A stretch of 64,000 nt of DNA, from NCBI RefSeq assembly GCF_001677475.2, contig NZ_CP015229.1; one strand, 5' to 3'. Source of the DNA: Escherichia coli. Lineage in GTDB: Bacteria; Pseudomonadota; Gammaproteobacteria; Enterobacterales; Enterobacteriaceae. Positions 17,213 to 44,798 of this stretch are shown piece by piece (within the stretch, counting starts at the first letter, position 1; each line of letters opens with the position of its first letter). The notes beneath the pieces are model-generated. The model was not told where the DNA came from. It did not search any database and saw nothing but the letters and a program-made list of their open reading frames with translations. The position numbers were made by a program, and so were the translations under genes.

Positions 17213-17217
17213 GATGA

Positions 17218-17964
17218 TTACTTCTTAATAAATTGAGGAAGTTTGGATAGATTTTTATACGCTAAAGCTATTGGCCAGATAATACCATTCTGTTTCATAG
17301 CGCGAATATCTTCCATTGATTTATTGATCATGGAAGATGCTGAGCGATTGCTAATTCCACCAACACGCATTTTCACTAATACTTTTGGTAAGTAAGCTAT
17401 TGAAATACGCTGTTTTAAAATATAACGTAATAATGAGTCATAATCAGCAGATATTCGGTAATCTAATGAAAAACAACCAAACTCACTATAACAATCGCGT
17501 TTCATATAAAATGATGGGTGTGGCGGCATCCAACCTAGTTTCATCTTCAAACGGCTAAATGAGCCACTCTTCCATAATCTAATACGTTTAGTCGTATCAT
17601 TTTGGGCAACATACTCCAAATCACCATAAACAGCATCACACCCTGAACTTTCAAATGTTTTTACTATATCTGCAATAGCATCGTCATAAGCAAGTAAGTC
17701 ATCAGAGTGCAAAAATCCAATTATATCACCAGAAGCTGCTTGAATACCTTTATTCAGTGCATCATAAATACCATTGTCGGGTTCGCAAATGATTGTTGAA
17801 ACTCTTGTACATTTACTCTTGATTAGCTCTATTGTATTATCTTTCGATGCTCCATCTACAACTATATATTCAATATCTGAATGCGTTTGTTTTTCCAGAG
17901 AGAGTAATGTATCAAGAAGCGTTTTTTCACTATTATAAGTTGCTGTGATAATTGAAATCCGCAT
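17218..17964 (-). CDS. Glycosyltransferase family 2 (WcaE-like)
   Basis: N-terminal ISIITATYNSEKTL...VVDGASKDNT motif typical of GT2; O-antigen cluster context. Confidence 0.75.
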   Translation of the reverse strand: MRISIITATYNSEKTLLDTLLSLEKQTHSDIEYIVVDGASKDNTIELIKSKCTRVSTIICEPDNGIYDALNKGIQAASGDIIGFLHSDDLLAYDDAIADIVKTFESSGCDAVYGDLEYVAQNDTTKRIRLWKSGSFSRLKMKLGWMPPHPSFYMKRDCYSEFGCFSLDYRISADYDSLLRYILKQRISIAYLPKVLVKMRVGGISNRSASSMINKSMEDIRAMKQNGIIWPIALAYKNLSKLPQFIKK

Positions 17965-19370
17965 TAGTATCCAACTCCAGAAGAAGAAACTCTTATAACA
18001 TCATCCTCTTCCAAGTAGACTCCTGATCTAACCTCAATTATTTCAAGTGGGATCTTGCCAGGATTTTCAATGGCATGTGGAACACCAACAGGTATATATG
18101 TTGATTCATTTTCTGAAACAAGATAAGTTTTCTCCTCAAGATGAACTTTAGCTGTCCCCGAAACAACAATCCAATGTTCAGTACGATGGTAATGGATCTG
18201 CTTAGCGGTAATGTGACCCGGTAATACAATCACATGTTTAACCTGAAAGCGTTGCCCTTCAGCTATAGTGTCATGACTGCCCCAAGGACGAAAAATTTCC
18301 CGATGTTGTAAATATTCTGTTCGATTATTCTTTTTAAGCTGAGCTACGATGTTTTTAACTTGCTGAACTTTATCTTTATGAGCAACTAATACTGCATCTT
18401 TCGTTTCAACGACAACCAAATCCTTTACGCCCACGGCACCAATAAGTCTATGCTGCGAATAAAGATAACTATCTGTAGCATCCTCAACCAAAACATCACC
18501 ACGAATGGCATTGCCGCTTTGGTCTTTTGAACTTATTTCCCACAGCGCAGACCATGACCCAACATCACTCCATTGCGCATCCAATGGTACGACTACAGCT
18601 TCTGCTGTTTTTTCCATAACGGCATAGTCGATTGACTCTTCAGGGCAGCAAGAAAAAGAAGAATTATCCAAGCGGATAAAATCTAAATCTTGAGTCGAGG
18701 AAGCTAAGGATTGCTGACAACTCTCTAGAATATCTGGACGGAATTTTTTTAGTTCATCGATGAATACAGATGCTCTGAACATAAACATTCCACTATTCCA
18801 AAGATAACCGCCATCTGACAAATACCGCTGAGCTAATTCTAGCTCTGGCTTTTCAACAAAAGCTGCAACTTTATAACCTTGCCCACTAAGTGGATCACCT
18901 GACTTAATATAGCCATACCCTGTCTCTGGAGCTGTTGGAACAATGCCAAATGTGACCAACTTACCTTGCTGCGCAAACTCCTTCGCGGCCAAAACTGCTG
19001 TAATGAAACTATTCTCATCCTGAATTTCATGGTCAGCCGCAAGAACTAAAAGTATAGGATCCTCTCCACTTGCCGTTGCCTGAAGCGCTGCAAGGGCTAC
19101 AGCTGGTGCCGTATTGCGCCCAACAGGCTCAAGCAAAATCCCACTATGCTTTAAACCAACTTTACGTAATTGTTCAGCAACGATGAAACGATGTGATTCA
19201 TTACAAATGATCAAAGCAGGATTGTGTTCAACCTTTTCTAGCCGTCGCATAGTCTCTTGCAACATAGTTAAGCGGCTATTTAAAGACAGAAATTGTTTCG
19301 GATAAAGTGTACGTGAAAGAGGCCATAATCTGGTACCAGATCCACCGGCCATGACAACGGGAAGTAGCAT
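17964..19370 (-). CDS. manC: Mannose-1-phosphate guanylyltransferase / mannose-6-phosphate isomerase (ManC), O-antigen copy
   Basis: ORF translation closely parallels cps CpsB in this window ([19 protein letters not shown]... C-terminal cupin); AT-rich codon usage. Confidence 0.9.
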   Translation of the reverse strand: MLLPVVMAGGSGTRLWPLSRTLYPKQFLSLNSRLTMLQETMRRLEKVEHNPALIICNESHRFIVAEQLRKVGLKHSGILLEPVGRNTAPAVALAALQATASGEDPILLVLAADHEIQDENSFITAVLAAKEFAQQGKLVTFGIVPTAPETGYGYIKSGDPLSGQGYKVAAFVEKPELELAQRYLSDGGYLWNSGMFMFRASVFIDELKKFRPDILESCQQSLASSTQDLDFIRLDNSSFSCCPEESIDYAVMEKTAEAVVVPLDAQWSDVGSWSALWEISSKDQSGNAIRGDVLVEDATDSYLYSQHRLIGAVGVKDLVVVETKDAVLVAHKDKVQQVKNIVAQLKKNNRTEYLQHREIFRPWGSHDTIAEGQRFQVKHVIVLPGHITAKQIHYHRTEHWIVVSGTAKVHLEEKTYLVSENESTYIPVGVPHAIENPGKIPLEIIEVRSGVYLEEDDVIRVSSSGVGY

Positions 19371-19375
19371 ATCTA

Positions 19376-19837
19376 TTACCTTGATATAAAATAATTTTTG
19401 GTATATTGATGAACTGTAGTGCTATTAAGCAACGTTACTACATCAAACCACTTGTAGGAATTATGCTGAATCGTTGGTAGGCGAAGTTGCTGCGGATTAA
19501 TTTGAATTTCATATCCATGCACTACGTAGTGTGTAGAAAAATCTAGTTCAGAAAAATTGTCATTGTAAAAGTGTTCATACACACCAAGAAATATGGCCTC
19601 ACCAAGACTAGTTTGAACGCCTAACTCTTCATATGTGATCCTTTTAAAAGCATCCTCGAATGACTCGTCCTTAAAAATTCGCCCTCCAGGCACAAACCAA
19701 TAATTTTTTGCGGGGCGATTCAGGCGCTGCCCAAGCAGCGCCTCTCCTTTATCATTTCTAATTATGAGGTCAATCGAGATTAGAGGAGTATGCTTGACTA
19801 TTGTTTTAAATAACTCATATTCTAATCTCTTTTTCAT
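19376..19837 (-). CDS. gmm: GDP-mannose mannosyl hydrolase (NUDIX), O-antigen copy
   Basis: NUDIX-type protein parallel to cps Gmm/WcaH in this window (YWFVPGGR motif). Confidence 0.85.
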   Translation of the reverse strand: MKKRLEYELFKTIVKHTPLISIDLIIRNDKGEALLGQRLNRPAKNYWFVPGGRIFKDESFEDAFKRITYEELGVQTSLGEAIFLGVYEHFYNDNFSELDFSTHYVVHGYEIQINPQQLRLPTIQHNSYKWFDVVTLLNSTTVHQYTKNYFISR

Positions 19838-19839
19838 AA

Positions 19840-20805
19840 CTATCCCCGAAAAGAATCAATATTCTCAAGAAACCATTGATATGTTAATGATAGACCTTCA
19901 TGTAAATTATAGCGATGTAGCCAGCCCAAGTTTTTGAGTCGGGTAACGTCCATAAGCTTTCGCGGGGTGCCATCTGGTTTGGTCGCGTCAAAAACAATTT
20001 TTCCTTGATAACCCACTACAGAAGCCATTGTTTCAGCCATTTCACGTATAGAACAATCCACCCCCGTACCAACATTAATATGAGATAACATTGGTTGTGT
20101 ATTTTGTTGATAGATTGTGTCCTCTAACTCCATCACATGAACCGAGGCAGCAGCCATATCATCAACATATAAAAACTCACGCATCGGTGTTCCCGTGCCC
20201 CAGACAATAACTTCTTGTGCACCACTTTCTTTTGCCTCATGGAATCTACGCATAAGCGCCGGAATAACATGGGAGTTTTCAGGATGGAAGTTATCATTCG
20301 AACCATAAAGATTAGTCGGCATTACACTTCTATAATCGCGACCATATTGACGATTATAAGACTCACATAATTTTATGCCCGCAATCTTAGCAATTGCGTA
20401 TGGCTCATTAGTTGGCTCAAGTATGCCCGTCAAAAGTGCAGACTCTTTCATCGGCTGCTCTGCAAATTTTGGATAAATGCAGCTAGAGCCTAAAAAAAGT
20501 AATTTTTGAATTCCAACCTTGTGAGCTGAATGTATAATATTACTCTCAATCATGAGATTCTGATAAATGAATTCTGCTGGAAATGTATTATTGGCATAAA
20601 TACCACCTACTTTTGCCGCAGCAAGATAAACCTGATCAACCCTCTCTCTCTCAAAAAATGCCTCAACATCCTTCTGCACGGTCAGATCGAGTTCTTTGTG
20701 TGTTTTAACCACTAACTCGATATCATCACGCAGCGATAATTGTCGGCAAATAGCAGAGCCAACCATGCCCTGGTGCCCAGCAACATATACTCTTTTCTTT
20801 ATCAT
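19840..20805 (-). CDS. fcl: GDP-L-fucose synthase (GDP-4-keto-6-deoxymannose 3,5-epimerase/4-reductase), O-antigen copy
   Basis: 321 aa, colinear with cps Fcl in this window ([12 protein letters not shown]...). Confidence 0.9.
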
Positions 20806-20808
20806 GTA

Positions 20809-21942
20809 TTAACGCTCCAGAGAAACCGAAACATCATAACCATGGCTTTTAAGAAGTGCATGTTGTTTCGCTTTTAACAAATCGCTAGCAACCATTTCTG
20901 CACACATCTCTTCAACTGTAATCTCTGGTTCCCAGCCTAATAGATTTTTTGCTTTTGCAGGGTCACCTAAGAGTGTTTCAACTTCAGCAGGACGGAAATA
21001 ACGAGGATCAACCCGAACTATAACGTCTCCAACATTTACACCAATAGCACAATCGGAAACTTTATTAACTACTGTGGCTATCTCATCTACACCCTCACCA
21101 GTGAATTCAAGTTCAAGTCCGACTTCTTTAGCAGCCATACGGACAAATTCACGCACAGATATCTGTTTACCTGTGGCGATGACAAAATCCTCTGGATGAT
21201 CTTGCTGAAGCATCATCCATTGCATGCGAACATAATCTTTAGCGTGTCCCCAGTCACGCAACGAATCCAGATTACCCAAATATAAGCATTGTTCGATCCC
21301 CTGAGAAATATTAGCTATTGCACGAGTAATTTTACGAGTAACAAAAGTTTCTCCACGGCGTGGCGATTCATGGTTAAAAAGAATACCATTACAAGCATAT
21401 ATACCATAAGATTCACGGTAGTTAACTGTTATCCAGTAAGCATACATCTTAGCTACAGCATAAGGCGAACGCGGGTAGAATGGAGTTGTTTCACGCTGAG
21501 GAATCTCTTGCACTAAACCAAAAAGTTCTGAAGTAGATGCTTGATAGAAACGTGTTTTTTTCTCCAGCCCACAGATTCGTATTGCTTCTAATAAACGTAA
21601 TGTACCTATTGCATCTACATCTGCTGTATATTCTGGTGACTCGAATGATACTGCGACATGGGATTGTGCACCAAGGTTATAAATTTCATCCGGTTGAATT
21701 TCTTGGATTAAACGGATCAGATTCGATGTATCTGTTAAATCCCCATAGTGTAAAATAAAATTAGGCTCATCAACGAATCGTGATTGATATATATGATCAA
21801 TTCTATCAGTGTTAAATGACGATGCTCGGCGTTTTATACCATGTACTTCATAACCTTTTTCAATAAGAAATTCAGCAAGATATGAACCATCTTGTCCAGT
21901 TACGCCTGTGATAAATGCAACTTTTTTATTCATTTTAATCAT
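20809..21942 (-). CDS. gmd: GDP-mannose 4,6-dehydratase, O-antigen copy (start may be at MNKK, 21930)
   Basis: Colinear with cps Gmd in this window ([37 protein letters not shown]). Confidence 0.9.
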
Positions 21943-21951
21943 GTTATGTTC

Positions 21952-22983
21952 CTAAATATTCAACTCATTATAAACTTTAATCGTTTCATTAACACATTTT
22001 GACCATGAAAATTTTTGCGCCTGCAGTAAACCTCTTTCGATCATAACATTTCTTTTTAAATTAACTAATTCTAAAGCTTCTTTTAACGTAAACTCATTAA
22101 TATCATCAATATAAATAGGCGCATTCCCCCCTACTTCCGGCAACGAGGATGTGTTTGCACAAATAACTGGACATCCGGCCTGCATAGCTTCTAGGACAGG
22201 TATTCCAAACCCCTCATAACTGGAAGGGTAAACAAGTGCATATGCAGTATTATACTGTATATTTAAATCTTCATTACTCAAAAATGTAAAATGTTCATAT
22301 CTATTTTTTAAATATTTTTCAAGGAGTTCTCTTTCATATTTTTTAAGCGAGCCTCCGCCTACAATTGTAAGCTTTAAGCCATGTAATTTCCCTACAGCTT
22401 TGACTGCAAGAACGAAATTTTTATAACCTTCTCTGGCACCGACAAACAAAACTGAATTATTTACTCTCATATCAGATATGTTAGAAATATGTTTATATGA
22501 TGGGGATACACCATTATAAATCACTCTAATTTTATCTTCACTAATTGGACAGTACTTAAGTAAATCTCTAGCAGTGTTGTTTGAAATACAAATTACGATA
22601 TCACTATTCTTGATAGCATGATATTTTTGAAGAGAATGAATAAATTTTGACATTCCTCCCCTGTATTTTTCATAGGTAAAATCATGAACAGTTGTAACAT
22701 TTTTCACATTCAAATTAGGATTTTTATGAACTCGATAATAACTTGAGTGTAAAACCCTAGTTTTAATATCACTTACATTTCTATATCTTTCTAAAATTCT
22801 TGGCTCACGATATTGCAACTTTAAGTCACTTGTATCAAACTCAAATTCTTTATTTTTATACAATAGAATTTCAGCTTGGTAATTTGATTTCACCATTCCT
22901 TGGATCAACTCATTAAAGTATACACTTATTCCACCAAATGATTGGAGATTATAAATAATCCCATCGATAGTTACCATTATCAT
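21952..22983 (-). CDS. Glycosyltransferase family 1 (GT4-like)
   Basis: C-terminal EGFGIPVLEAMQAGCPVI motif typical of GT-B retaining glycosyltransferases. Confidence 0.75.
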   Translation of the reverse strand: MIMVTIDGIIYNLQSFGGISVYFNELIQGMVKSNYQAEILLYKNKEFEFDTSDLKLQYREPRILERYRNVSDIKTRVLHSSYYRVHKNPNLNVKNVTTVHDFTYEKYRGGMSKFIHSLQKYHAIKNSDIVICISNNTARDLLKYCPISEDKIRVIYNGVSPSYKHISNISDMRVNNSVLFVGAREGYKNFVLAVKAVGKLHGLKLTIVGGGSLKKYERELLEKYLKNRYEHFTFLSNEDLNIQYNTAYALVYPSSYEGFGIPVLEAMQAGCPVICANTSSLPEVGGNAPIYIDDINEFTLKEALELVNLKRNVMIERGLLQAQKFSWSKCVNETIKVYNELNI

Positions 22984-24236
22984 CGCCCTCGCAAGGTAAT
23001 ACGTTCGATTAGAACGAACAATATCAAAAAGAAGATCAGTAACAATACATATGCAGGCCCAGAAAAATAAGTTCCAAATGAAGGTGAAATGAGAATTATA
23101 GAAAGCAAAAAATAGGATGCAGAGTTCGTAATTACTTTTGCATTAAACATTTTAAGCTTAGCAAAAATATAGCCATAAAAGATATTCATAGGTGAAAGAA
23201 AAGTTAAAATGACCAGTCCAACATATCCATAATCAACAAAATTATCCATCCCTTTTGAAAAAGCAGGTGTATGCCCCGACTCTGCAGCTCCTGGATAATA
23301 GATTTCATTTACATGCAGAAATCCATATACAAAAGGTTTATCAGGAAACAAACCTCTCGGTATATAAGACCAAAACTGGCTGAAATAGACTGTGCCATTG
23401 AAAAATTTAACCACACCTTTATCAATATCTTGCAGCAAATAAATACTGTTTTGATACTGGTCAAAATAAGACAATACTACATCGACATTCATATTTCCAA
23501 TAGCTAAAAATAAATTATAGAGAATGGCACACGCTGCCAGAGGTGTAACTAAAATCAGGCCAAATTTTAGAAATCTAGATTTATTAAGACTTAACACTGC
23601 AAGATAAAAAATCGCAAATGAAAGAATAAAGGTTTTCGATCCAAGAAAAAAAACCAAGGTACAATAGAATATCGCGCATAAAAATAATTTTATTTCCGAG
23701 CGTAAAGCCAACGCTCTAGAAAAATAAGATACTGAAAGCATACTTAAAGAAAAGGCATACAAAAAACCATTACCTTCTCGATAGTTTTGATAACCATCCC
23801 TGGGATTCGTCAACCATCCAGAAATACCTATTTCTGACTTTGAAGAAAGAAGAACAAATAATGTAACAAACAGAACCAATGTAATATTTGATATTCTTTT
23901 TAATTTTGTATGCGAAATTAAGCAAGTTAAATAGCTCTCTCTATTTTTGAATATTATATTAAAAATAAAATAAAATAAAATTATAGATAAAACACCCACA
24001 AAAGAGTATATGTTATATATGAATAAAGCCTCATTATAATATTGATTTAACGCAAAGTCTGAACCATAGAAAAGAGGGGCCAGAATATTTTCCAATAGAA
24101 AAACCGGGAATAAAATAATGGCGCAAATGGTAAAGGGATTGATAATTGTAAGTCTTAGCGTTTTCGTCGCTAATAAAGAAAAAGAAAAATATAGTACTAC
24201 AGCGAGTGTAACATTTAAACAATATATTATTACCAC
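22980..24236 (-). CDS. wzy: O-antigen polymerase Wzy (candidate)
   Basis: 418-aa highly hydrophobic multi-TM protein with no catalytic motifs of other families, very AT-rich, located in O-antigen cluster. Confidence 0.6.
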   Translation of the reverse strand: MVIIYCLNVTLAVVLYFSFSLLATKTLRLTIINPFTICAIILFPVFLLENILAPLFYGSDFALNQYYNEALFIYNIYSFVGVLSIILFYFIFNIIFKNRESYLTCLISHTKLKRISNITLVLFVTLFVLLSSKSEIGISGWLTNPRDGYQNYREGNGFLYAFSLSMLSVSYFSRALALRSEIKLFLCAIFYCTLVFFLGSKTFILSFAIFYLAVLSLNKSRFLKFGLILVTPLAACAILYNLFLAIGNMNVDVVLSYFDQYQNSIYLLQDIDKGVVKFFNGTVYFSQFWSYIPRGLFPDKPFVYGFLHVNEIYYPGAAESGHTPAFSKGMDNFVDYGYVGLVILTFLSPMNIFYGYIFAKLKMFNAKVITNSASYFLLSIILISPSFGTYFSGPAYVLLLIFFLILFVLIERITLRGR

Positions 24237-24246
24237 ATCCTCTCCC

Positions 24247-25056
24247 CTATCTTAAACCGAATAATTTGCGCTTAATTGATTTTGTTTTTTGATATAATGT
24301 TTGAGGAACAATCATTTTAAATAAAACTTGCAATGTATTATAGACAGCAAATTTTATTTTGTATGATAAGGGCATATGAATATTATTTTTAGCTAGAATG
24401 TAAGCAATTTCTTTCTTGACTAATTTTTTATTAGACTCATTTGAACTTACACCCGAAGCATCCATTATGGATACAGGAAAATTCACATAATGCAACGTAG
24501 ATGGATCTATTGTTCTTATCATAAAATCACTATCAGCAGCAATTTTTAGTGTTGTATCAAAGCGATTAGCATTATCTTTAAAAAAGCTAGAATGCTGGAA
24601 AGTACCCTGATGAGGAGGAAGTGAAGGCCGACCACATTCCCACTTTTTCTGTATTTTTCCGTAAACTCCAACTATATTATCTTTATCACTAAAATATACA
24701 TCACCATATATAGTTGTTGCACTCATATTTTCGTGAATGGCATTTGCTATTTTTGAAAGAGTATTATTTTCATAGAATGTATCGCCAGCTCCCATAAAAA
24801 TAACCCAATCGCCATTTATGTGAGGAAGAGCTTTATTCCAAGCGTCGTATATTCCTTGATCAGATTCGCATAAAAAATAATCTATAATATCAATATATCT
24901 ATAAATATATTCTAGTGTTGATTTGTTAGAGTTGCCGTCTATAACAATCCATTGAATATTACAATAATTTTGATTTTTAATAGATTCTGCAGTCTTGCAG
25001 AAATCTTCCTCACAATTATACGTCGATGTTATTATAGTAATCTGTAAGCCATTCAT
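24247..25056 (-). CDS. Glycosyltransferase family 2
   Basis: ITIITSTYNCEEDF...VIDGNSNKST N-terminal GT2 signature. Confidence 0.75.
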   Translation of the reverse strand: MNGLQITIITSTYNCEEDFCKTAESIKNQNYCNIQWIVIDGNSNKSTLEYIYRYIDIIDYFLCESDQGIYDAWNKALPHINGDWVIFMGAGDTFYENNTLSKIANAIHENMSATTIYGDVYFSDKDNIVGVYGKIQKKWECGRPSLPPHQGTFQHSSFFKDNANRFDTTLKIAADSDFMIRTIDPSTLHYVNFPVSIMDASGVSSNESNKKLVKKEIAYILAKNNIHMPLSYKIKFAVYNTLQVLFKMIVPQTLYQKTKSIKRKLFGLR

Positions 25057-25062
25057 CTTAAC

Positions 25063-25773
25063 TCACTTATTTTTCATAGCAATATATTTTAATCTTAATT
25101 CTTTAATTAATGTCTTTACTTTACTATCAGTGGAATACTCAATATTAAACGTGCCAGAGACTCCTCTTATTTTGGGAATAGTTGTTCCAATAACTCCTTT
25201 TAATTTATTATTTTTAATTTGCTCAAAAAAAATGTGTTCTAAATAAACACCATCAAGGTCACGCACAGATTTATAAGAATTAGCAAAAAAGTCCCAATAT
25301 ATTTTTTTATTTACAACATAAAATCTTGTATCAATCATATTTTCATTCAGAAAAGGAACTGGTATAAAAAAAGCTTTACCATTGAATGCATTTATACATT
25401 GCTTATAATTATCGACGTATAGTTTTGATGTTATTTTTGCAAAACTTTCAGCATTAGACAAATAGCGGCTATTCATTAATGCATACTCAATTATTTCACC
25501 CTCTCCGTAACCTTTACCATAAGATTGAACACTTTCTATATCATTTTTGAAATGTATTATCTCGATCGAATCTTTATTAAGTATTTGTTTATCATTATGA
25601 ATATCTTTCGTCAAATCATAATCACTACCATCACATATTACTATAGAATCAGCATTCTTTGACAACTCTCTTATCGCTTTCAATGTATGTAATAATCTTG
25701 AATTTTCATCAGAAAGATTTGTAAGAGGAGCATTAGGTGAGATACAAGAAGTCACTAATACTGGGATTTTCAT
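25063..25773 (-). CDS. Hypothetical O-antigen cluster protein, ~236 aa (possible glycosyltransferase of unassigned family); start ATG overlaps wzx stop (ATGA)
   Basis: ORF with ATGA coupling to wzx; contains DGSDYD (DxD-like) motif; no family recognised by eye. Confidence 0.4.
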   Translation of the reverse strand: MKIPVLVTSCISPNAPLTNLSDENSRLLHTLKAIRELSKNADSIVICDGSDYDLTKDIHNDKQILNKDSIEIIHFKNDIESVQSYGKGYGEGEIIEYALMNSRYLSNAESFAKITSKLYVDNYKQCINAFNGKAFFIPVPFLNENMIDTRFYVVNKKIYWDFFANSYKSVRDLDGVYLEHIFFEQIKNNKLKGVIGTTIPKIRGVSGTFNIEYSTDSKVKTLIKELRLKYIAMKNK

Positions 25774-27014
25774 TTTTTCTTTTCCAGCCTCAACGAAATT
25801 AACATTAGTATAAAATAATCGACGGTGACTCTTGCGCTCCAAGCATAAGCCACACCTGCTACAGAAAAATACATAATTGAAAAATATAAAACCAGCAGAT
25901 ATGGAATACATTCAACAAGATGAATGAGCCCCGTAATATTTGCATAACCTTTCGATTGGATTTGAGCAAATGGAACTTGAGCAAGAGAGTTGAATACAAA
26001 ACCTACTAATAATATTTGAAATATATAAGGACTCTCAGTGCTATATTGTTTTCCAAGCCATAAAGTTATAATATCACCAGCCTTCAAAGAAAACATAATA
26101 GCTATAACTATACTAGTTACACTTATTAATAACGTAGCCTCTTTTATTATTTTTCTCCGCTCATCTTTTGTATTATTCTTGCATAGAGCAGGAAAAACTG
26201 TCCTTGCTATAGTTGTCGGTAATATAAGTAACTTTGAAATTGCATCTGCAGGAGCAATATATAACGAAGCTTTAGCGGGGCCAACTGCATTTGATAAGAT
26301 AAATCGATCAATATTTGTAAGCAATGGGTTAATTATACTACTAATACTCGCCCATCCTCCAAAACTTAATAGTGCTTTTGTTTTACTTAGACTAAAATCC
26401 ATTGTAAGCCTATTATTTCTAAAAACAAAGAACACGCTTAAAAGAGCACCAACTATTCTCGCAATCACCAATCCCAAAGTAGCATTAAGCAAACCAACAT
26501 TTCCATGAATGAAAATAACTGGTAGTAGCGCAGTTAACACACCTGTAATTGTTTTTTGTACATTCAATAATTTGAACTTTTCATATCCTTCTAATATCCC
26601 CCAACAAACCATATTAAGAAGATAAAATGGCAGACAGTAGGATAAAATACTTATAGCATATGCAACACTTTCAGTTTGTTCCGGACCACTAATTAAGGAT
26701 GCAATCTTATGGTCGCAGTAATAAAAAATTACGGCTACAACAACACCAATAGATAATGTTAATAAAAATGATGTTGTAATTATTTGACTGGTTGCCTTTT
26801 TGTCGTTTTTATTTAATGATATTTCACGCACAACGGCTCGGGAAAGTCCGAGATCAAATATACTTGCGTATCCAACTATTGTAAAAAACATTAAAAAAAA
26901 GCCAAAGTTAGTTATTCCTAACTCCCTTGCCAAATACCCCATCGCAGGTATTGACAATAAAGTTGGGATTGCATACCCAACCAAATTTATTAAACTATTT
27001 ATTTTAATACTCAT
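25770..27014 (-). CDS. wzx: O-antigen flippase Wzx (polysaccharide transporter family)
   Basis: 414-aa protein with ~12 predicted TM segments, located immediately after rmlC. Confidence 0.7.
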   Translation of the reverse strand: MSIKINSLINLVGYAIPTLLSIPAMGYLARELGITNFGFFLMFFTIVGYASIFDLGLSRAVVREISLNKNDKKATSQIITTSFLLTLSIGVVVAVIFYYCDHKIASLISGPEQTESVAYAISILSYCLPFYLLNMVCWGILEGYEKFKLLNVQKTITGVLTALLPVIFIHGNVGLLNATLGLVIARIVGALLSVFFVFRNNRLTMDFSLSKTKALLSFGGWASISSIINPLLTNIDRFILSNAVGPAKASLYIAPADAISKLLILPTTIARTVFPALCKNNTKDERRKIIKEATLLISVTSIVIAIMFSLKAGDIITLWLGKQYSTESPYIFQILLVGFVFNSLAQVPFAQIQSKGYANITGLIHLVECIPYLLVLYFSIMYFSVAGVAYAWSARVTVDYFILMLISLRLEKKK

Positions 27015-27031
27015 TTTTTAATTATCTTTTG

Positions 27032-27574
27032 TCAATAATTATTTTGTATAAATGGAGTGCCCAAACAATCTTTTTGTGATAAAAGAGGTTCTTTGTATAA
27101 TTGCCAATCTATGTTAAGTAAAGCATCATTCCAAATGATACATTTCTCATGTTCTTTTGAGTAAAAATTATTGGTCTTATACAATATTTCTGAACCTTCT
27201 TCTTTTACATAAAAACCATGTGCAAATCCCTCAGGGATCCACAACTGGCGCTTATTCTCAGCAGATAAATTCACCCCAACCCACTTGCCAAAAGTAGGTG
27301 ACGATTTACGAATATCAACCGCAACATCAAAAACCTCACCAACAACGCAACGTACCAATTTCCCTTGCGCATAAGGTTCTAACTGATAATGCAGCCCGCG
27401 TAAAACACCTTTACTAGACTTCGAATGGTTATCCTGGACAAATTCAACCTTACGTCCTACAGCTTCTTCGAATACTTTCTGATTAAAGCTTTCCATAAAG
27501 AAACCACGCTCATCACCAAAAACTTTCGGCTCGAAAATTAACACATCAGGAATTTCTGTTTTAATTACGTTCAT
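27032..27574 (-). CDS. rmlC: dTDP-4-dehydrorhamnose 3,5-epimerase RmlC
   Basis: 180-aa cupin; rmlBDAC order. Confidence 0.9.
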   Translation of the reverse strand: MNVIKTEIPDVLIFEPKVFGDERGFFMESFNQKVFEEAVGRKVEFVQDNHSKSSKGVLRGLHYQLEPYAQGKLVRCVVGEVFDVAVDIRKSSPTFGKWVGVNLSAENKRQLWIPEGFAHGFYVKEEGSEILYKTNNFYSKEHEKCIIWNDALLNIDWQLYKEPLLSQKDCLGTPFIQNNY

Positions 27575-27578
27575 TTTA

Positions 27579-28457
27579 TTAATAACCTTTAATCATTTTC
27601 AGCAGATACTGTCCATAAGCATTTTTTTTCAGCGGCTCCGCTAATGCTTTCACCTGTTCAGCATCAATAAACCCTTTACGGTAAGCAATTTCTTCTGGGC
27701 AGGAAACCTTTAGTCCCTGGCGCTCTTCAATGGTGGCAATGAAGTTGCTTGCTTCAATAAGACTCTGATGTGTCCCCGTATCCAGCCATGCATAACCACG
27801 CCCCATCATGGCAACGGATAAACGCCCCTGTTCCATATAAATACGGTTAATATCGGTAATTTCCAGTTCACCACGGGCAGAAGGCTTAAGGTTTTTCGCC
27901 ATTTCGACAACGTCGTTATCATAGAAATAAAGCCCGGTTACCGCATAATTACTTTTTGGTTGTAGCGGTTTTTCTTCCAGGCAGATCGCCGTACCGTTTT
28001 TATCAAACTCAACGACACCGTAGCGTTCAGGATCATTAACGTGATAGGCAAATACCGTTGCACCACTTTCTTTGTTAACAGCGACATCCATTAACTTCGG
28101 CAGATCATGACCGTAGAAGATATTATCACCAAGAACCAAAGCACAATCATCACCACCGATAAACTCTTCACCGATAATAAACGCCTGCGCAAGCCCATCT
28201 GGAGTCGGTTGCACTTTGTACTGAAGATTTAGCCCCCACTGGCTACCGTCACCCAGCAGTTGTTGAAAACGAGGAGTATCCTGTGGCGTACTAATAATCA
28301 GAATATCGCGAATACCCGCCAACATCAGTGTAGAGAGCGGGTAATAGATCATCGGCTTATCATAAATAGGTAATAGCTGTTTACTGACAGCCATAGTCAC
28401 AGGATAAAGACGTGTACCAGAACCACCCGCTAAAATAATACCTTTACGCGTTTTCAT
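27579..28457 (-). CDS. rmlA: Glucose-1-phosphate thymidylyltransferase RmlA
   Basis: [19 protein letters not shown] nucleotidyltransferase N-terminus; 292 aa. Confidence 0.95.
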
Positions 28458-28514
28458 TTCATCATTCCTTTTAATTCATCTTGCTCCACCATCACGAACA
28501 AGATGCAAAAACTA

Positions 28515-29414
28515 TTAAATTGCTGTAGTCGTAAATAATTCGTTGAGCATTCGTTTCACACCAACCTGCCACTCAGGCAAGACAAGCGCAAAGTTCTGCT
28601 GAAATTTTTCTGTATTAAGGCGAGAGTTATGTGGACGACGAGCTGGTGTAGGATAGGCTGTTGTTGGTACTGCGTTGAGCTTGTTGAGTGCAAGGGGAAT
28701 ACCTGCTTTGCGCGCCTCTTCAAAAACCAGCGCAGCATAATCGTGCCAGGTTGTGGTACCACTGGCTACCAGATGGTACAAACCTGCGACTTCCGGTTTA
28801 TTCAGTGCCACACGAATAACATGTGCCGTACAATCAGCCAGCAGCTCAGCACCTGTTGGCGCACCAAATTGATCATTTATCACAGCCAGTTCTTCGCGCT
28901 CTTTTGCCAGACGCAACATCGTTTTGGCGAAGTTATTTCCTTTACCTGCGTATACCCAGCTGGTACGGAAAATAAGATGCTTCGCGCAATGTTCCTGTAA
29001 CGCTTTTTCTCCGGCTAACTTGGTTTCACCGTAAACATTTAGCGGTGCGGTTGCATCCGTCTCCAGCCATGGCGTGTCGCCATTTCCAGGGAAGACGTAG
29101 TCAGTTGAGTAATGAATTACCCAAGCCCCAACTTCATTAGCCGCTTTTGCAATTGATTCAACGCTAGTCGCATTGAGTAATTGTGCAAATTCGGGTTCTG
29201 ACTCAGCCTTATCTACTGCGGTGTGAGCCGCAGCATTAACAATAACATCAGGTCGAATTCTTTTGACTGTTTCAGCTACACCTTCAGGATTACTAAAATC
29301 ACCACAATAATCAGTGGAGTGAACATCAAGAGCAATCAAATTACCCAAAGGTGCCAGAGCACGCTGTAGTTCCCAACCTACCTGCCCTGTTTTGCCGAAA
29401 AGGAGGATATTCAT
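28515..29414 (-). CDS. rmlD: dTDP-4-dehydrorhamnose reductase RmlD
   Basis: [20 protein letters not shown]; 299 aa. Confidence 0.95.
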   Translation of the reverse strand: MNILLFGKTGQVGWELQRALAPLGNLIALDVHSTDYCGDFSNPEGVAETVKRIRPDVIVNAAAHTAVDKAESEPEFAQLLNATSVESIAKAANEVGAWVIHYSTDYVFPGNGDTPWLETDATAPLNVYGETKLAGEKALQEHCAKHLIFRTSWVYAGKGNNFAKTMLRLAKEREELAVINDQFGAPTGAELLADCTAHVIRVALNKPEVAGLYHLVASGTTTWHDYAALVFEEARKAGIPLALNKLNAVPTTAYPTPARRPHNSRLNTEKFQQNFALVLPEWQVGVKRMLNELFTTTAI

Positions 29415-30499
29415 TACTGGCGGCCCTCATAGTTCTGTGCAATCCACGATTGATAGGCACCACTTTTCACATTATCAACCCATTTTGTATTGGACAGGTA
29501 CCATTCCACTGTCTTCCGAATCCCGCTCTCAAACGTTTCCTGCGGTTTCCAGCCCAATTCGCGGCTAATCTTCTCAGCATCAATCGCATAACGGCGATCG
29601 TGTCCCGGGCGGTCGGCAACATAAGTAATTTGCTCACGATAAGATTTCTCTTTCGGTACAATCTCATCCAGCAAATCACAAATAGTAAGCACTACATCGA
29701 TGTTTTTCTTTTCGTTGTGTCCGCCAATATTATAGGTTTCGCCTGCTTTACCTTCAGTAACGACTGTATATAACGCTCGAGCATGATCCTCGACATACAA
29801 CCAATCGCGAATTTGATCCCCTTTACCATAAATAGGTAATGCTTTACCTTCCAGAGCATTCAGAATAACCAATGGAATCAATTTTTCCGGGAAATGATAA
29901 GGGCCATAATTGTTAGAGCAATTAGTCACAATGGTCGGTAAACCATAGGTACGTTTCCACGCGCGGACTAAATGATCGCTGGATGCTTTGGATGCGGAAT
30001 AAGGGCTGCTTGGTGCGTAAGCTGTTGTCTCAGTAAATAAGGGTAATTTTTCTTTATTATTTACTTCGTCAGGATGAGGCAAATCACCATAGACTTCGTC
30101 AGTAGAAATATGATGAAAACGGAAGCTATTTTTCTTGTCGCTATCAAGAGCAGACCAGTAATTGCGAGCGGCTTCCAAAAGGACATAAGTACCAACAATA
30201 TTGGTTTCAATAAATGCCGCAGGGCCTGTAATTGAACGATCCACATGGCTTTCAGCAGCCAGGTGCATCACTGCATCCGGCTGATGCAGAGCAAAAATCC
30301 GCGCCATTGCAGCAGCATCGCAAATATCCGCATGTTCAAAAACATAGCGTTCAGAATCAGAAACATCAGCAAGTGATTCCAGGTTTCCGGCGTACGTTAA
30401 TTTATCGACATTAACAACACTATCCTGCGTATTATTTATAATGTGACGAACTACAGCAGAACCAATAAATCCTGCGCCACCAGTAACAAGTATTTTCAC
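29414..30499 (-). CDS. rmlB: dTDP-glucose 4,6-dehydratase RmlB
   Basis: [20 protein letters not shown]; 361 aa SDR. Confidence 0.95.
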
Positions 30500-30573
30500 T
30501 TAATTATTCCATATTACTTCAGAGCATGCTGTGAAATAAGCGGCTCTTAGTTTGATTAATAGAGGTATTAATG

Positions 30574-30612
30574 CACGCTACCGCCCCTGGCTTTACAGCT
30601 ACCAGAGCACTG
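30574..30612 (-). promoter_or_regulatory. JUMPstart element containing ops (GGCGGTAGCGTG) upstream of the O-antigen operon
   Basis: Minus-strand read: cagtgctctggtagctgtaaagccaggggcggtagcgtg, matching the remembered 39-bp JUMPstart consensus. Confidence 0.9.
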
Positions 30613-30870
30613 CATGCATGCCTACGATGTGACGAGCGTTACCCACTCGCGCTAAACCCGAAAAATTCAAACACTAATTGTCTTACCAATCCGCTCTGGA
30701 AACAAGGAAAATCCTGGAAAACTTTGACTAAAATCCTATTGCTAACTCGTTGTTATCCTGATTGTTTATATAAAACAACGGCAGGAATATTCGCAACAAA
30801 TTACTTTCGCCACGAATCTTCACTGCCGTTATAATTTTCTTATCAACCGTTACATTCGGTCAGATTTTCA

Positions 30871-31764
30871 TTATTCGCTTAACAGCTTCTCAATGCCTTT
30901 ACGGAACTTCGCCCCTTCTTTCAGGTTGCGTAGTCCATACTTCACGAACGCTTGCATATAACCCATTTTTTTACCGCAGTCGTAGCTGTCACCAGTCATC
31001 AGCATTGCATCAACAGACTGTTTTTTCGCCAGTTCGGCAATGGCATCTGTCAGTTGGATACGTCCCCATGCACCTGGCTGAGTGCGTTCAAGTTCCGGCC
31101 AAATATCGGCAGAAAGCACATAGCGACCAACGGCCATGATGTCTGAGTCCAGCGTCTGCGGCTGATCCGGTTTTTCGATGAATTCAACAATGCGGCTGAC
31201 TTTACCTTCGCGATCCAGTGGTTCTTTGGTCTGAATAACGGAGTATTCAGAGAGGTCACCCGGCATACGTTTTGCCAGCACCTGGCTGCGGCCCGTTTCG
31301 TTGAAGCGCGCAATCATGGCAGCAAGGTTGTAGCGCAGCGGGTCGGCGCTGGCGTCATCGATCACAACGTCTGGCAGCACCACGACAAATGGGTTGTCAC
31401 CAATGGCGGGTCGTGCACACAAAATGGAGTGGCCCAAACCTAAAGGTTCGCCCTGACGCACGTTCATAATGGTCACGCCCGGTGGACAGATGGACTGCAC
31501 TTCCGCAAGCAGTTGACGCTTCACGCGCTGCTCAAGGAGAGATTCTAATTCATAAGAGGTGTCGAAGTGGTTTTCGACCGCGTTCTTGGACGCGTGAGTT
31601 ACCAGGAGGATTTCTTTGATCCCTGCAGCAACAATCTCGTCAACAATGTACTGAATCATTGGCTTGTCGACGATCGGTAGCATCTCTTTGGGAATCGCCT
31701 TAGTGGCAGGCAACATATGCATCCCAAGACCCGCTACAGGAATAACTGCTTTTAAATTCGTCAT
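30871..31764 (-). CDS. galF: UTP-glucose-1-phosphate uridylyltransferase-like regulatory subunit GalF (start at [14 protein letters not shown])
   Basis: ORF translation; conserved position between cps and O-antigen clusters. Confidence 0.95.
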
Positions 31765-31938
31765 TATTTCATCCACCTGTAAAATGGTTGCTGAATTATA
31801 GCTTGTTCGATTTTTTTCGCCAGCATCAATTACCCTGAATTGATTACTGAATTACTTTTGATGTTACGCCGCTTCGTTGTGGATTGCAGTAGCATTGTTC
31901 CTAAGTATGGCTCCATTTTTCCAGGAATGGTCGCAAAT

Positions 31939-35902: not shown

Positions 35903-36090
35903 GCCTGATGCGACGCTGGCGCGTCTTATCAGGCCTACAAGACCCGAGCACAGAACCGTAGGCCGGATAAGGCGTTCACGCCGCATCCGGCATTCAGTGC
36001 CTGATGCGACGCTGACGCGTCTTATCAGGCCTACAGGTCCCGAGCACAGAACCGTAGGACGGATAAGGCGTTTTACGCCGCATCCGGCAA
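35903..36090. repeat. BIME/REP cluster: two tandem ~90-bp units (gcctgatgcgacgctg[gc/ac]gcgtcttatcaggcctaca...ccgtagg.cggataaggcg...ccgcatccggca)
   Basis: Two near-identical palindromic units read directly; ORF-track ORFs here are spurious. Confidence 0.9.
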
Positions 36091-39126: not shown

Positions 39127-40497
39127 TTACTCGTTCAGCAACGTCAGCAGAGTTCGCGTTCGCGCTTCCATCAGCGGCACATCACCGCGCGATTCCACAT
39201 TCAGGCGCACCACCGGTTCGGTGTTGGAGGAGCGCAGGTTAAAGCGCCAGTCGGCAAAGGTCATGCTGATGCCATCGGTGCGATCCACCGCCAGCGCCTC
39301 ACGGCTAAAATGCTGTTCCACGCGGTTAATCGCCTCAACGGGATGCGCCAGTTTGCTGTTGATCTCACCGCTTGCCGGAAACGCCGCCATCCGGTCGCGT
39401 ACCAGTTCGCCCAGCGTTTTCTCTTTCAGGCACACCAGTTCGGCGACCAGCAGCCACGGGATCATGCCGCTGTCGCAGTAAGCGAAATCACGGAAGTAAT
39501 GGTGGGCGCTCATTTCGCCACCGTAGATGGCGTCTTCCTTGCGCATCCGTTCTTTAATAAAGGCGTGTCCGGTTTTCGACATCACCGGAGTGCCGCCCGC
39601 GGCAGTCACCACATCAACGGTGTTCCAGGAGAGACGTGGATCGTGGATGATCTTCGCGCCGGGATTTTTTTCGAGGAACGCTTCTGCCAGTAGGCCGACA
39701 ATGTAGTAGCCCTCAATAAACTGCCCTTTTTCGTCAAACAGGAAACAGCGGTCAAAATCGCCATCAAAGGCAATGCCCATATCCGCGCCGTGTTTGATGA
39801 CCGCATTGCGGGTGTCATCGCGGCATTCCGGCAGCAGCGGGTTAGGAATACCGTTGGGGAAATTGCCGTCCGGCGTGTTGTGCACTTTGATCAATTCCAC
39901 CGGTGCGCCGAGGGCGTTAAAGCGGGCTTCGATAGCGTCCACCACCGGCCCCGCTGCGCCGTTCCCGGAGTTGATTACCAGCTTGAGCGGCGTGAGGTTT
40001 TTGACGTTGATATAACCGAACAGGTGATCAACGTAAGCGTCACGCAGATTGATTTGCTGATAGCGACCGCGTTTTGTTTCATCAACGGGAGGAAAGTCGT
40101 TGGCTTCTGCCAGACGCTGGACGTCGCGCAGTCCGGTATCACCGCTGATCGGGCGGGCCCCTTCGCGCACCAGCTTCATGCCGTTGTAATCCATCGGGTT
40201 ATGGCTGGCGGTAACTTCGATGCCGCCATCCACGCCGAGATGGAACGTGGCGAAATAGATCTCTTCGGTGCCGGACATGCCAATATCCAGCACATCGACG
40301 CCCGCATCCTGTAAACCTTTCGCCAGCGCCAGTTTTAAGGTTTCGCTGGTGAGGCGGACATCACCGCCTAACACAATGGTTTTCGGTTTGAGAAATTCGC
40401 CATAGGCACGCCCAATACGCCAGGCAATATCTTCATTCAGTTCTTCGCCTAATTTCCCGCGAATATCGTAGGCTTTAAAGCAGGTTAATTTTTTCAT
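39127..40497 (-). CDS. cpsG: Phosphomannomutase CpsG/ManB (start at [14 protein letters not shown])
   Basis: TASHNP catalytic loop, [16 protein letters not shown] motifs in ORF translation. Confidence 0.95.
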
Positions 40498-40587
40498 GTC
40501 GTTACCCTTTTTCAGGCAATAGTTGGCCCTGACCGAAGCGGCCAATTTTGTTTTTGTCGTTATTTACATCGCGGTTCGGCATTCATT

Positions 40588-40688
<101 letters not shown>

Positions 40689-40689
40689 T

Positions 40690-42126
40690 TTACACCCGTC
40701 CGTAGCGATCCGCGAAGCGCACCACATCATCCTCTTCGAGATAAGAGCCGGAGCGCACTTCAATTAAATCGAGCGGAATTTTCCCCGGGTTTTCCAGGCA
40801 GTGCTTCGCCCCCAGCGGAATATAAATGGACTCGTTTTCACCAAGCAGTTTGATATCACCGTCAATAGTGACTTTTGCCGTTCCCGCGACAACCACCCAG
40901 TGTTCCGCCCGGTGATGGTGCATCTGTACCGACAAGCCTTCGCCCGGTTTCACGGTGATGCGTTTCACCTGGTAGCGGTCGCCCGCGTCGATAGAGTCAT
41001 ATTTGCCCCACGGGCGATAGACTTCGCGATGTACCCGATGCTCATGGCGACCATCGGCTTTGATCTGCTCGACCACTTTTTTCACATCCTGCACCGCATT
41101 GCGGTCGGCAATCAGCACCGCATCTTTGGTCTGCACTACCACCAAATCTTTCACCCCGACGGTGGTGACCAGGCCAGATTCGGCATACACATAGCTGTTT
41201 TCAGTTTTGTGATTAATCACATCGCCATGGCAAACGTTGCCCTCGGCGGTGTGGGCGCTGATCTCCCATAAAGAGGACCAGGAGCCGACATCGCTCCAGC
41301 CCGCATCCATCGGCACCACAACAGCATCTGCCGTGCGTTCCATAACTGCGTAATCCACCGACTCTTCCGGGCAGGCCAGAAACGCTTCTTCATCCACACG
41401 AATAAAATCGAGATCCGGATCGACGGCGCTCATCGCTTTTTCACAGGCGTTGAGGATGTCCGGGCGATATTTTTTCAGTTCTTCGAGATAGCGTCCGGCG
41501 CGGAACAGGAACATGCCGCTGTTCCAGTAATATTCGCCGCTTGCCACATAGGCCTGGGCGGTTTCCAGATTCGGTTTTTCGACAAACTGCGCCACTTCAA
41601 AGGCCACCGTATCCTGCTCACCCGCCGACACTTCACCGCGACGAATATAGCCATAACCGGTTTCTGGTAGATCCGGCACAATGCCGAAGGTCACCAGCTT
41701 ACCTGCTTCGGCATATGGCATGGCATTACGCACGGCGGCACGGAACGCGTCTTCATCGGCAATCACATGATCCGCCGCCAATACCAGCATTAACGGGTCG
41801 CTCTCCGGGCTATGACGTTTTGCCGCCAGCGCCGCCAGTGCAATGGCAGGTGCAGTGTTACGCCCTGCCGGTTCGAGAATAATGTTCTCGGTGAGTTTGT
41901 TCAGTTGACGCAGCTGTTCCGCGACAATAAAGCGGTGCTGCTCATTACAAATCACCACCGGGCTTTCGCACTCCACGCCGTTCAGGCGACAGATGGTGGT
42001 TTGCAGCATGGTGAGATCGCCTTTCAGGCATAAAAACTGCTTGGGGTAAAGTACGCGGGAAAGCGGCCATAAGCGGCTCCCGGAGCCACCTGCCATCACA
42101 ACTGGATAGAGTTTCGACTGCGCCAT
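40690..42126 (-). CDS. cpsB: Mannose-1-phosphate guanylyltransferase CpsB/ManC
   Basis: 478 aa; synteny. Confidence 0.95.
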
Positions 42127-42128
42127 AA

Positions 42129-43352
42129 TTATCCCCGAATATCATTTATAAATTGACGTAACACGTTCTCTTTATCGAGCGTGCGTTCGGCATATTCACG
42201 TGCCACCGTGTTGTGTTTGGGCAGCAGGAGCGCCTGACGGATCCCCGCCACCAGTGCCTCGACCGATTCCGGTTCTACGCAAACCGCAATGCCCGGAAAG
42301 GTTTCGCAAAGCTGCCCCAGTTCGGTGTGGGCTTCTGCGGTAATCACCGCGTTACCACCTACCGCCAGAATATTGGTCAGTTTCGACGGCAATACGGCAT
42401 CTGCCGCGCCGCGTTTTTGCACTACCAGATGGCAATCGCCCATCTTCAGCAGTGCGGGTAAAGCGTCATACGATTGCAGTGGAAAAAATTGCATGTTGCG
42501 CAGTCCACGCTGCTGCGCCATTTTTTCCAGCCGCGCTTTGCCGCCGCCCTGCCCGACAATGGCAAAAATCAGCGGTTCATCGCGCAGGCGATCGGCAGCT
42601 TCAATAACGTTTTCCAGCCCTTGCTTTTCACCAATATTGCCGGAGTAAAGAATGATTTTTTTGTTATCCGGCAGGCCAAGCTGGTTACGAAGGGCATCAA
42701 CATCGGCGTCTGCAACATATTGAAAACGGGCGATTTCCGACCAATTGGGGAAGAAGATGACGTTTTCCGCCGCCACGCCTTTTTCGATGGCTTTATTCAT
42801 CATCGAACGCGAAATCGTGGAGACGTTATCGACGTTATGCAGTCCGCTACGTTCGAACGCCGTCGCCAGCTGTGCCACTTTGCCGCCTTTGCCTTTTCCG
42901 GCAAGGCCCAGCCCCAGCATGGCGTCCACTTCGTAATCCTGAATATGCAGCACCGTGCGCGCACCAGAAAGTTTCGCCAGCAGGCGCATTCCCGGCGTGC
43001 AAAACAGCGTTGGCACTACGCCAATAATGCGCTCCGGCTTCCAGCGACGTTGCGCCATCAGCGGGAAAAAACTGCTGACGGCAAAACTGCCGAGATGCAA
43101 CAGGCGTTTCAGGGTGCTCGGCTGTTTTGGCACATACAGCGGGCAGCGCCACACCGTGGCGGCCCCCTCTTCCCGTTTGTACCGCCAGGCGGAATAGTTC
43201 TCACCCACCTGCCACTGCGGGTAGTAAGGCGGTGCGGTAATGACCCGCACCTCATGACCTTGTGCCGCAAGCCATTCCACCATCTCTCCGGTGTATTTGC
43301 CGATGCCGGTTAACTCCGGCGAGTAGTTAATGCCGTAGACCAGTATTTTCAT
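42129..43352 (-). CDS. wcaI: Colanic acid glycosyltransferase WcaI
   Basis: 407 aa GT1; synteny. Confidence 0.9.
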
Positions 43353-43828
43353 AATCCGGGTACTCCGGCACGCTTCTCAGCGAGAAAATAGGCGCGGCTG
43401 TTAGCGTGAACATTGTCACTGGCGAGCAGCGCGTCCGGCGTCAGCCAGCGGTAATCGTCATGCTGCTCATCCGGCAGTAACAGCTCTTCTTCCACTACTC
43501 TGAAGCGAAAACCGAGCACCACATAGTGAGTGGAGAAATCCGTGCCGGAGAAGTTATCGTCATAAAAGTGCTGCCAGACACCGTAAAACTGGCCTGCTGT
43601 TATCGGCAGACGCAGCCCCAGTTCCGCCATCGTCAGCCGCTCAAATGCGGCTTCCAGCGTTTCGTCTTTCTGCACGCGCCCTCCCGGCACAAACCAGTAA
43701 CCCTGCGCCGGGCGGTTGGTTCTTTTGCCAAGCAGAAACTCGCCGCGACTGTTCTCGACAATAAAGTCGAGAGAGACAAGCGGGGTGGAGCGCACTACCG
43801 TGGCAAAGTCTTCCTGACGTAAAAACAT
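43349..43828 (-). CDS. gmm: GDP-mannose mannosyl hydrolase Gmm/WcaH (start at MFLRQEDF)
   Basis: NUDIX protein; synteny. Confidence 0.9.
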
Positions 43829-43830
43829 CA

Positions 43831-44796
43831 TTACCCCCGAAAGCGGTCTTGATTCTCAAGGAACCACTGGTAAGTGCTGGCAAGCCCCGCTTCCAGTGAG
43901 ATTTCGTGATACCAGCCAAGCTGATGCAGGCGCGTCACATCCAGCAGTTTGCGCGGCGTACCATCCGGTTTACTGGCATCAAAAACCACCCGACCTTTGT
44001 AACCCACCACTTTGGCGATGGTTTGCGCCAGCTCGCGGATAGTGCAGTCAACGCCCGTGCCGACGTTAATGTGTGACAGCATCGGCTGGGTGTTTTCCAG
44101 CCAGACTTCGTGCGCCAGCTCCATCACATGAATGCTCGCCGCTGCCATATCATCGACGTGCAGAAATTCACGCATCGGTGTACCGCTGCCCCATACCACC
44201 ACGTCCGGTGCATTCTGTGCCGTCGTCTCGTGGAAGCGACGCAGCAATGCAGGTATCACATGCGAATTACTCGGATGGAAGTTGTCGTGTGGCCCGTACA
44301 GGTTGGTCGGCATGACCGAGCGGTAATCGCGTCCATACTGGCGGTTGTAAGATTCGCACAGTTTGATCCCGGCGATTTTGGCAATGGCGTAAGGCTCGTT
44401 GGTCGGCTCCAGCGTACCCTGCAATAACTCGCTTTCGGCCATCGGCTGTTTTGCCAGTTTCGGGTAGATGCAGGACGATCCGAGAAACAGCAGTTTGTTC
44501 ACGTCGTTCTGATGCGCAGCGTGAATGATGTTGCTCTCAATCATCATGTTCTGGTAGATGAAATCCGCCGGATAGGTGTTATTGGCAACAATGCCGCCCA
44601 CTTTCGCTGCCGCCAGATAAACCTGGTCAATGCGCTCGCTGGCAAAGAAATCATGCACCGCACGGCTATCCAGAAGGCTCAGCTCGTCGCGGGTGCGTAA
44701 TACCAGTTCCACATCACCGCGCTGTTCGAGCTGCCGCCTGATGGCGGAACCGACCATCCCGCGATGGCCAGCGATAAAAATGCGTTGTTTACTCAT
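43831..44796 (-). CDS. fcl: GDP-L-fucose synthase Fcl (WcaG)
   Basis: 321 aa; synteny. Confidence 0.95.
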
Positions 44797-44798
44797 GC

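Follow-up and report, generated by a model that had tools for sequence, protein, structure and literature searches.

JUMPstart was named in 1994 as a 39-bp element (Hobbs & Reeves 1994), was linked to the operon polarity suppressor (ops) and to RfaH between 1996 and 1998, and is now a curated Rfam family (RF01707, the JUMPstart RNA motif; Weinberg et al. 2010, PMC2864571). The mechanism of this element, described since the 1990s, is known at atomic resolution. RNA polymerase pauses at ops U11, and the non-template strand of the complex adopts a small hairpin (C3:G8) with T6 flipped into a pocket of RfaH (PMC5995543, PMC11001881). Every single substitution in ops except G2C lowers stimulation by RfaH, the strongest effects in vivo being those of G5A, T6A, G8C and T11G, and recruitment in vitro is abolished by G4C, G5A, A7T and G8C (PMC5995543). 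After loading, RfaH travels with the polymerase; by excluding NusG it also keeps Rho away, and in addition it suppresses pausing and brings ribosomes to messages whose Shine-Dalgarno sites are poor (PMC6391919). A genome-scale description exists for the O-antigen operon of uropathogenic E. coli CFT073, on which ChIP-seq detects RfaH from the single leader ops onward. In that strain all RfaH targets are covered by H-NS/StpA, and RNA polymerase occupancy 5.4 kb downstream drops to 0.1–0.34 of wild type when RfaH is missing (Hustmyer et al. 2022, PMC9765446).

We analysed a 64-kb stretch of an E. coli chromosome, referred to below as the window, and focused on a 39-mer between galF and rmlB. It is a genuine, ordinary JUMPstart with a perfect ops, located in the predicted untranslated leader of an O36-type O-antigen operon. 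It matches the Rfam motif and the 1994 element over their full length, stem-loop included, with no substantive difference; the element is already known and there is nothing new at the level of finding. We consider it most probable, at roughly 0.9, that it serves as the RfaH loading site of this operon, a judgment made from sequence and published work. For annotation, it settles which way the O-antigen operon runs, where its 5′ boundary is and where the leader lies, and it leads to the prediction that this strain needs RfaH, a known virulence regulator, for O-antigen expression.

Identity of the 39-mer and of its ops

Read on the minus strand from 30612 to 30574, the element is CAGTGCTCTGGTAGCTGTAAAGCCAGGGGCGGTAGCGTG, and the plus strand carries the reverse complement. 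Its final 12 bases, 30585 to 30574, are an exact ops, GGCGGTAGCGTG, and the sequence-only reading had the coordinates, the letters and the strand reasoning right. The RF01707 covariance model aligns end to end (model positions 1–38 of 38) with 60.0 bits, the gathering score being 35 bits, and with E-values of 2.6e-11 for the whole window and 2.1e-13 locally. That reading had also called the 39-mer an exact match to the JUMPstart consensus. This holds for all conserved JUMPstart columns, the whole ops included, and the 39-mer is the same as the K-12 copy, but the statement is too strong for a few variable positions: the 39-mer departs from the Rfam consensus at one loop base and a few columns of low conservation, and from the majority consensus of 32 enterobacterial copies at three variable positions (7, 19 and 20).

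When both strands were searched, the exact ops 12-mer occurred twice in the window, each time on the minus strand, which is the operon strand, and no copy appeared in any of 100 dinucleotide-preserving shuffles. Allowing up to two mismatches yields six sites in the window, which is the chance level, so only the exact copies are meaningful. No other site with two mismatches or fewer was found inside the operon (15788..30573), leaving a single ops ahead of it. One degenerate 12-mer within wzc, GGCGGAAGCGTC (two mismatches, 52463..52474, minus strand), carries an A at the essential T6 position, and RfaH binding is therefore not expected there.

Table 1. Coordinates of the JUMPstart/ops element, its leader and the surrounding genes in the window.
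Feature	Coordinates	Strand	Basis
JUMPstart element, 39 nt	30574..30612	minus	Rfam RF01707, full length
ops (operon polarity suppressor), GGCGGTAGCGTG	30574..30585	minus, non-template (coding) strand of operon	exact match
Predicted pause position, ops U11	30575	minus	assigned from sequence; G12 next at 30574
Stem-loop: CUGGU (30605..30601), 9-nt loop, GCCAG (30591..30587)	30587..30605	minus	Rfam consensus structure
Small leader hairpin, GCGAGUG / CGCUCGU	30632..30650	minus	minimum-energy and centroid folds
Predicted −10 hexamer, GACAAT	30677..30682	minus	cross-serogroup block TAAGACAAT
Predicted −35 hexamer, TTGTTT	30700..30705	minus	cross-serogroup block CTTGTTTC
Long hairpin, putative galF terminator	30775..30832	minus	RNA fold; followed by U-rich run 30765..30774
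galF	30871..31776	minus	TIGR01105, 689 bits
rmlB/rfbB start codon, GTG	30497..30499	minus	74 nt past ops; ORF list and full-length NCBIfam match
rmlB/rfbB	29414..30499	minus	NCBIfam NF007490, 795 bits, residues 1–361, full length
O-antigen operon, 15 genes	15788..30499	minus	NCBIfam assignments; about 14.9 kb
Second JUMPstart, colanic-acid wza operon	55029..55066	minus	RF01707, 57.9 bits; exact ops 55029..55040

The predicted leader and the operon behind it

The element lies in the galF-rmlB spacer, as had been proposed, and ops sits between a strong terminator-like hairpin past galF and the start codon of rmlB. Every gene of the region from galF through the operon is on the minus strand; because galF and rmlB both are, the element has the orientation of the operon, which agrees with the direction assigned to it before. 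The hairpin that directly follows the galF stop codon (−33.3 kcal/mol, z = −6.3) is matched in stability by none of 200 shuffles, and its arms are kept, or altered in a complementary manner, in the leaders of other serogroups (e.g., O111). Together with the adjoining U-rich run, it is a probable galF terminator that parts galF from the O-antigen transcript. A simple terminator scan did not pick up this hairpin. Rfam microRNA matches at 30769..30844, far below threshold, were rejected as a mere reflection of it.

To locate a promoter, we rely on nine aligned leaders: those of the window (O36), K-12, EC444, O83, O111, O145 and CT265, a wzi capsule leader and the wza leader of the window. Across the galF-linked ones (O36, K-12, EC444, O83, O111, O145 and CT265) the blocks CTTGTTTC and TAAGACAAT are constant at a fixed spacing of 17 nt while the intervening 17 nt vary, the CT265 leader reading GATAAT at −10. 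This pair of blocks, 65–93 nt upstream of JUMPstart, is likely a weak sigma-70 promoter of the O-antigen operon. A consensus promoter and terminator scan of 30400..30950 turned up nothing convincing as a minus-strand promoter in the stretch from galF to JUMPstart, since the −35 hexamer matches the consensus at only 3 of 6 bases. The sole minus-strand hit of the scan (30893..30864) was rejected as the operon promoter, being inside galF and upstream of the terminator hairpin. The conserved block would place the transcription start near 30670 and make the leader about 170 nt long, with JUMPstart at roughly +59 to +97 and a small hairpin between the predicted start and JUMPstart. The promoter of E. 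coli O7, described by Marolda and Valvano in 1998, reportedly lies in the galF-rmlB spacer as well, and the untranslated leader there is said to be about 173 nt long and to contain JUMPstart and ops. That length agrees with the approximately 170 nt predicted here.

The operon runs in the order rmlB, rmlD, rmlA, rmlC, wzx, an unassigned ORF, a GT2 glycosyltransferase gene, wzy, a GT4 glycosyltransferase gene, gmd, fcl, gmm, manC, a second GT2 gene and manB, where the product of wzx is a MOP-family flippase and that of wzy a polymerase-like protein. Gaps between the 15 genes range from −4 to 57 nt. The last gene, manB, ends at 15788 and is followed, after a gap of 191 nt, by gnd, ugd and wzzB. 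GC content per gene is 28–47% in the cluster versus 50–56% in the colanic-acid and his flanks. The central cluster is 98–99.5% identical to clusters with RefSeq-annotated O36-family wzx and wzy, from which the O36 names are taken, and the O36-family cluster is rare (8 of 5426 complete E. coli genomes). Low GC and rarity together justify speaking of a long, foreign-looking O-antigen operon, and they are consistent with the earlier description of the cluster as foreign. The rfaH gene is absent from the 64-kb window, but it is a core gene in E. coli, the species indicated for this DNA by 98–99.5% identity to RefSeq genomes.

Two further observations concern gene content. The closest complete RefSeq O36 cluster, that of E. 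coli E06 (NZ_CM143910.1, 10865..15491, compared with window positions 20809..24236), is 99.5% identical; in E06 wzy is frameshifted and gmd is split by an IS5-family insertion, whereas both are intact ORFs in the window. The window also holds two GDP-mannose/GDP-fucose gene sets (gmd, fcl, gmm, manC/cpsB and manB/cpsG) on the minus strand, at 15788..21942 and 39127..46000. Per-gene GC is 37–42% in the O36 set and GC is about 53–58% in the colanic-acid set, a difference that indicates separate origins.

Conservation of the element and its stem-loop

A close reference is the K-12 rfb (galF-rfbB) leader, in which an identical 39-mer lies between the same two genes, in the same orientation and at the same spacing as in the window. 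The two 371-nt spacers are 96% identical, and their 15 substitutions or indels all fall outside the element; the cluster behind it differs, being O36-type here and not that of K-12. The same 39-mer is found in the O36 strain E06, and over both comparisons (K-12 and E06) the spacers show 10–15 differences, none inside it. Among the nine aligned leaders, which include those of unrelated polysaccharide clusters, no block other than JUMPstart is conserved throughout. With the 39-mer as query, JUMPstart-like sequence turned up in 5425 of 5426 complete E. coli genomes, at a median of three places per genome, and an identical copy in 2122 records.

Such conservation bears on whether the 39-mer could be a chance match, an inert relic or part of an 87-codon plus-strand ORF (30571..30834), possibilities to which we give a negligible chance. 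An ORF does exist on the opposite strand, and PGAP annotates a 41-aa "hypothetical protein" antisense to the JUMPstart of one genome (strain 2-331, locus positions 392..517). Chance is at odds with the absence of the ops 12-mer from all the shuffles and with the whole-window Rfam E-value, and both chance and decay are at odds with a 39-mer that is perfectly conserved while its flanks diverge. As for coding, RefSeq leaves the spacer without an annotated gene in K-12, EC444 and E06, and conservation along the region is patterned as promoter, hairpin and leader rather than as codons. We therefore rejected the ORF that crosses JUMPstart and the leader; both it and the 41-aa call in strain 2-331 are most likely ORF-calling artefacts over a conserved non-coding element.

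Alignment of the spacer to many E. coli genomes breaks off at query positions 296–304, which is 0–7 nt past JUMPstart, and in some genomes JUMPstart alone matches. A break at this point fits a fixed host-side control region placed before an exchangeable cassette. It could also be read as a sign that the 39-mer is primarily a recombination junction, which marks the 5′ edge of an exchangeable O-antigen cassette and lets clusters be replaced by homologous exchange, and that it has no part of its own in regulating this locus. We regard this as very unlikely: 39 bases are very short for RecA-dependent exchange, and a junction would leave unexplained the strand-specific placement of the element upstream of unrelated operons (rfaQ, wza and wzi), the invariance of exactly those bases that RfaH and the pause require, and the published RfaH ChIP signal that begins at ops. 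That the element marks a boundary is more readily understood as a by-product of conservation.

The wider distribution was surveyed by scanning one genome per species with the pattern AGCTG-N8/9-GGGGCGGTAGC. Chance accounts for 90 of the 127 matches, in unrelated phyla; true copies number 37 once the window and E. coli loci are pooled in. They come from Citrobacter, Enterobacter, E. albertii, Pluralibacter, Cedecea, Kosakonia and others, and precede, in sense orientation, rmlB, rfaQ, flippase-like, wzi-like, sugar acetyltransferase and FnlA-like genes. Position T11 of ops (column 38) is invariant in all 32 distinct copies, though the search pattern left that column free.

The Rfam consensus pairs positions 8–12 (CUGGU) with 22–26 (GCCAG), and all five pairs form in the window copy. 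The complete stem is present in 35 of the 37 enterobacterial copies against 2 of the 90 chance matches, which serve as a negative control, and 98.8% of cells are paired over the 32 distinct copies. Pair 9–25 is the only one of the five that covaries (UA 18, AU 8, GU 3, GC 1, unpaired 2). The observed score for pairing and covariation was reached by none of 500 shuffles and slid registers collapse, a result to be read with the caveats that three of the five pairs never vary and are partly fixed by the selection filter, and that the sequences are related. The U12–G22 wobble is invariant and becomes an A–C mismatch on the opposite strand, so that any structure would be specific to the sense strand. 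The 39-mer RNA fold is no more stable than shuffles (z about 0), and neither is that of the whole leader (z = −0.68); support for the stem-loop comes from covariation only.

It is conceivable on these grounds that the element acts mainly as a structured leader RNA, independent of RfaH, which binds a factor or acts on the polymerase in the manner of the Bacillus EAR/epsC element. Rfam indeed classes JUMPstart as a cis-regulatory RNA with a conserved stem-loop (PMC2864571), and both the covarying pair and the strand-specific U–G pair speak for RNA. However, ops is the most conserved part of the element and is read by RfaH as non-template DNA in crystal and cryo-EM structures (PMC5995543, PMC11001881), just one of the five pairs covaries and the hairpin is of unexceptional stability, and an RNA hairpin might well be an aid to RfaH action and not a substitute for it. 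We hold this reading to be highly improbable.

How the hairpin might assist is suggested by its position. In every copy examined the 3′ end of the stem lies 12 nt upstream of the ops pause position, and pause hairpins form 11–12 nt upstream of the RNA 3′ end (PMC4227799), so the stem has the geometry of an exit-channel pause hairpin and could play a part in the pause. The likeness to the hairpin-stabilised pause of the his leader is that the 5-bp JUMPstart stem stops 12 nt short of the paused RNA 3′ end; the difference is that the ops pause, characterised in the absence of any RNA hairpin upstream, is described as differing in its biochemistry from the hairpin-stabilised class (PMC11001881). 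As far as we found, the published work on the ops pause used ops without this hairpin. We tentatively hypothesize, while considering it rather unlikely, that the nascent-RNA hairpin may prolong the ops pause or block extended backtracking, thus lengthening the time available for loading scarce RfaH. If so, the natural ops pause would be a hybrid of two classical pause classes.

The second JUMPstart of the window likewise carries an exact ops and has its stem-loop and the spacing from stem to ops in common with the O-antigen copy, but it is a 38-nt form with one loop base fewer and a differing 5′ part. It is located 178 nt before the start codon (ATG) of wza, with which the colanic-acid cluster wza-wzb-wzc...wcaM begins. 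In CFT073, the wza operon is reported as a cryptic target of RfaH that H-NS silences at initiation (PMC9765446).

Probable RfaH loading and its expected consequences

Mismatches at essential ops positions were looked for and none was found: G4, G5, T6, A7, G8, the C3:G8 pair and T11, all required according to PMC5995543, are wild type in the window. The consensus pause bases are present too, with G2 at −10, the pyrimidine T11 at −1 and G12 at +1. A DNA fold of ops was uninformative, giving a weak hairpin (−0.9 kcal/mol) in a register unlike that of the crystal structure. The operon itself has the profile of a typical RfaH target, being long, tightly packed and of 28–47% GC, with a single ops ahead of the first gene and none internally. 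It resembles the CFT073 O-antigen operon (PMC9765446) in this single ops, predicted to lie in the leader, in being an AT-rich, H-NS-type target and in having ops a few tens of nucleotides before the first start codon. It differs in serogroup and first gene and in the distance from ops to the start codon, 74 nt here versus 40–67 nt in the CFT073 O-antigen, kps and rfa operons. Since published work fits the sequence base for base and the operon shares the properties of the CFT073 targets, we assigned the RfaH-loading function to the element, in support of the earlier interpretation; dependence on RfaH is expected because the K-12 rfb leader carries the identical 39-mer and because of the ChIP-seq signal on the CFT073 O-antigen operon (PMC9765446).

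The events may then be pictured as follows. Transcription would start at the weak conserved sigma-70 promoter near 30670, downstream of the galF terminator hairpin, and about 96 nt into the leader RNA polymerase would meet ops and pause at U11, as the literature describes and the sequence allows us to place. In the paused bubble, the non-template GGCGGTAGCGTG would fold into a tiny hairpin (C3:G8), presenting G5 and the flipped-out T6 to RfaH. RfaH would bind, its C-terminal domain would refold, and it would stay with the polymerase across the whole transcription unit, excluding NusG (and so Rho), suppressing pausing, overcoming H-NS/StpA filaments and recruiting a ribosome. Only a weak GGA Shine-Dalgarno-like motif precedes the rmlB GTG. 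The polymerase would thereby complete the AT-rich 15-gene operon of about 14.9 kb, and loss of RfaH or of ops should cut the distal genes (wzy, and gmd to manB) far more than rmlB. Sites resembling intrinsic terminators are not enriched in the operon (14 versus 11.9 in shuffles), so the barriers overcome would be Rho and H-NS and not hairpin terminators. The termination that is suppressed, be it by Rho or H-NS, is not visible in sequence.

Other structured RNAs were recognised elsewhere in the window. An Rfam algC RNA motif (40502..40551, minus strand; 77 bits versus a cut-off of 33.8) occupies the short gap between two colanic-acid genes, cpsB (mannose-1-phosphate guanylyltransferase) and cpsG (phosphomannomutase). 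A naRNA4 match, a REP-like double hairpin (35961..36031, plus strand; 79.7 bits), is found between the colanic-acid flippase gene and wcaK. Near the left end of the window are the histidine operon leader (4339..4462, plus strand; 132.6 bits) and the enterobacterial sRNA STnc240 (1525..1599, minus strand; 68.6 bits).
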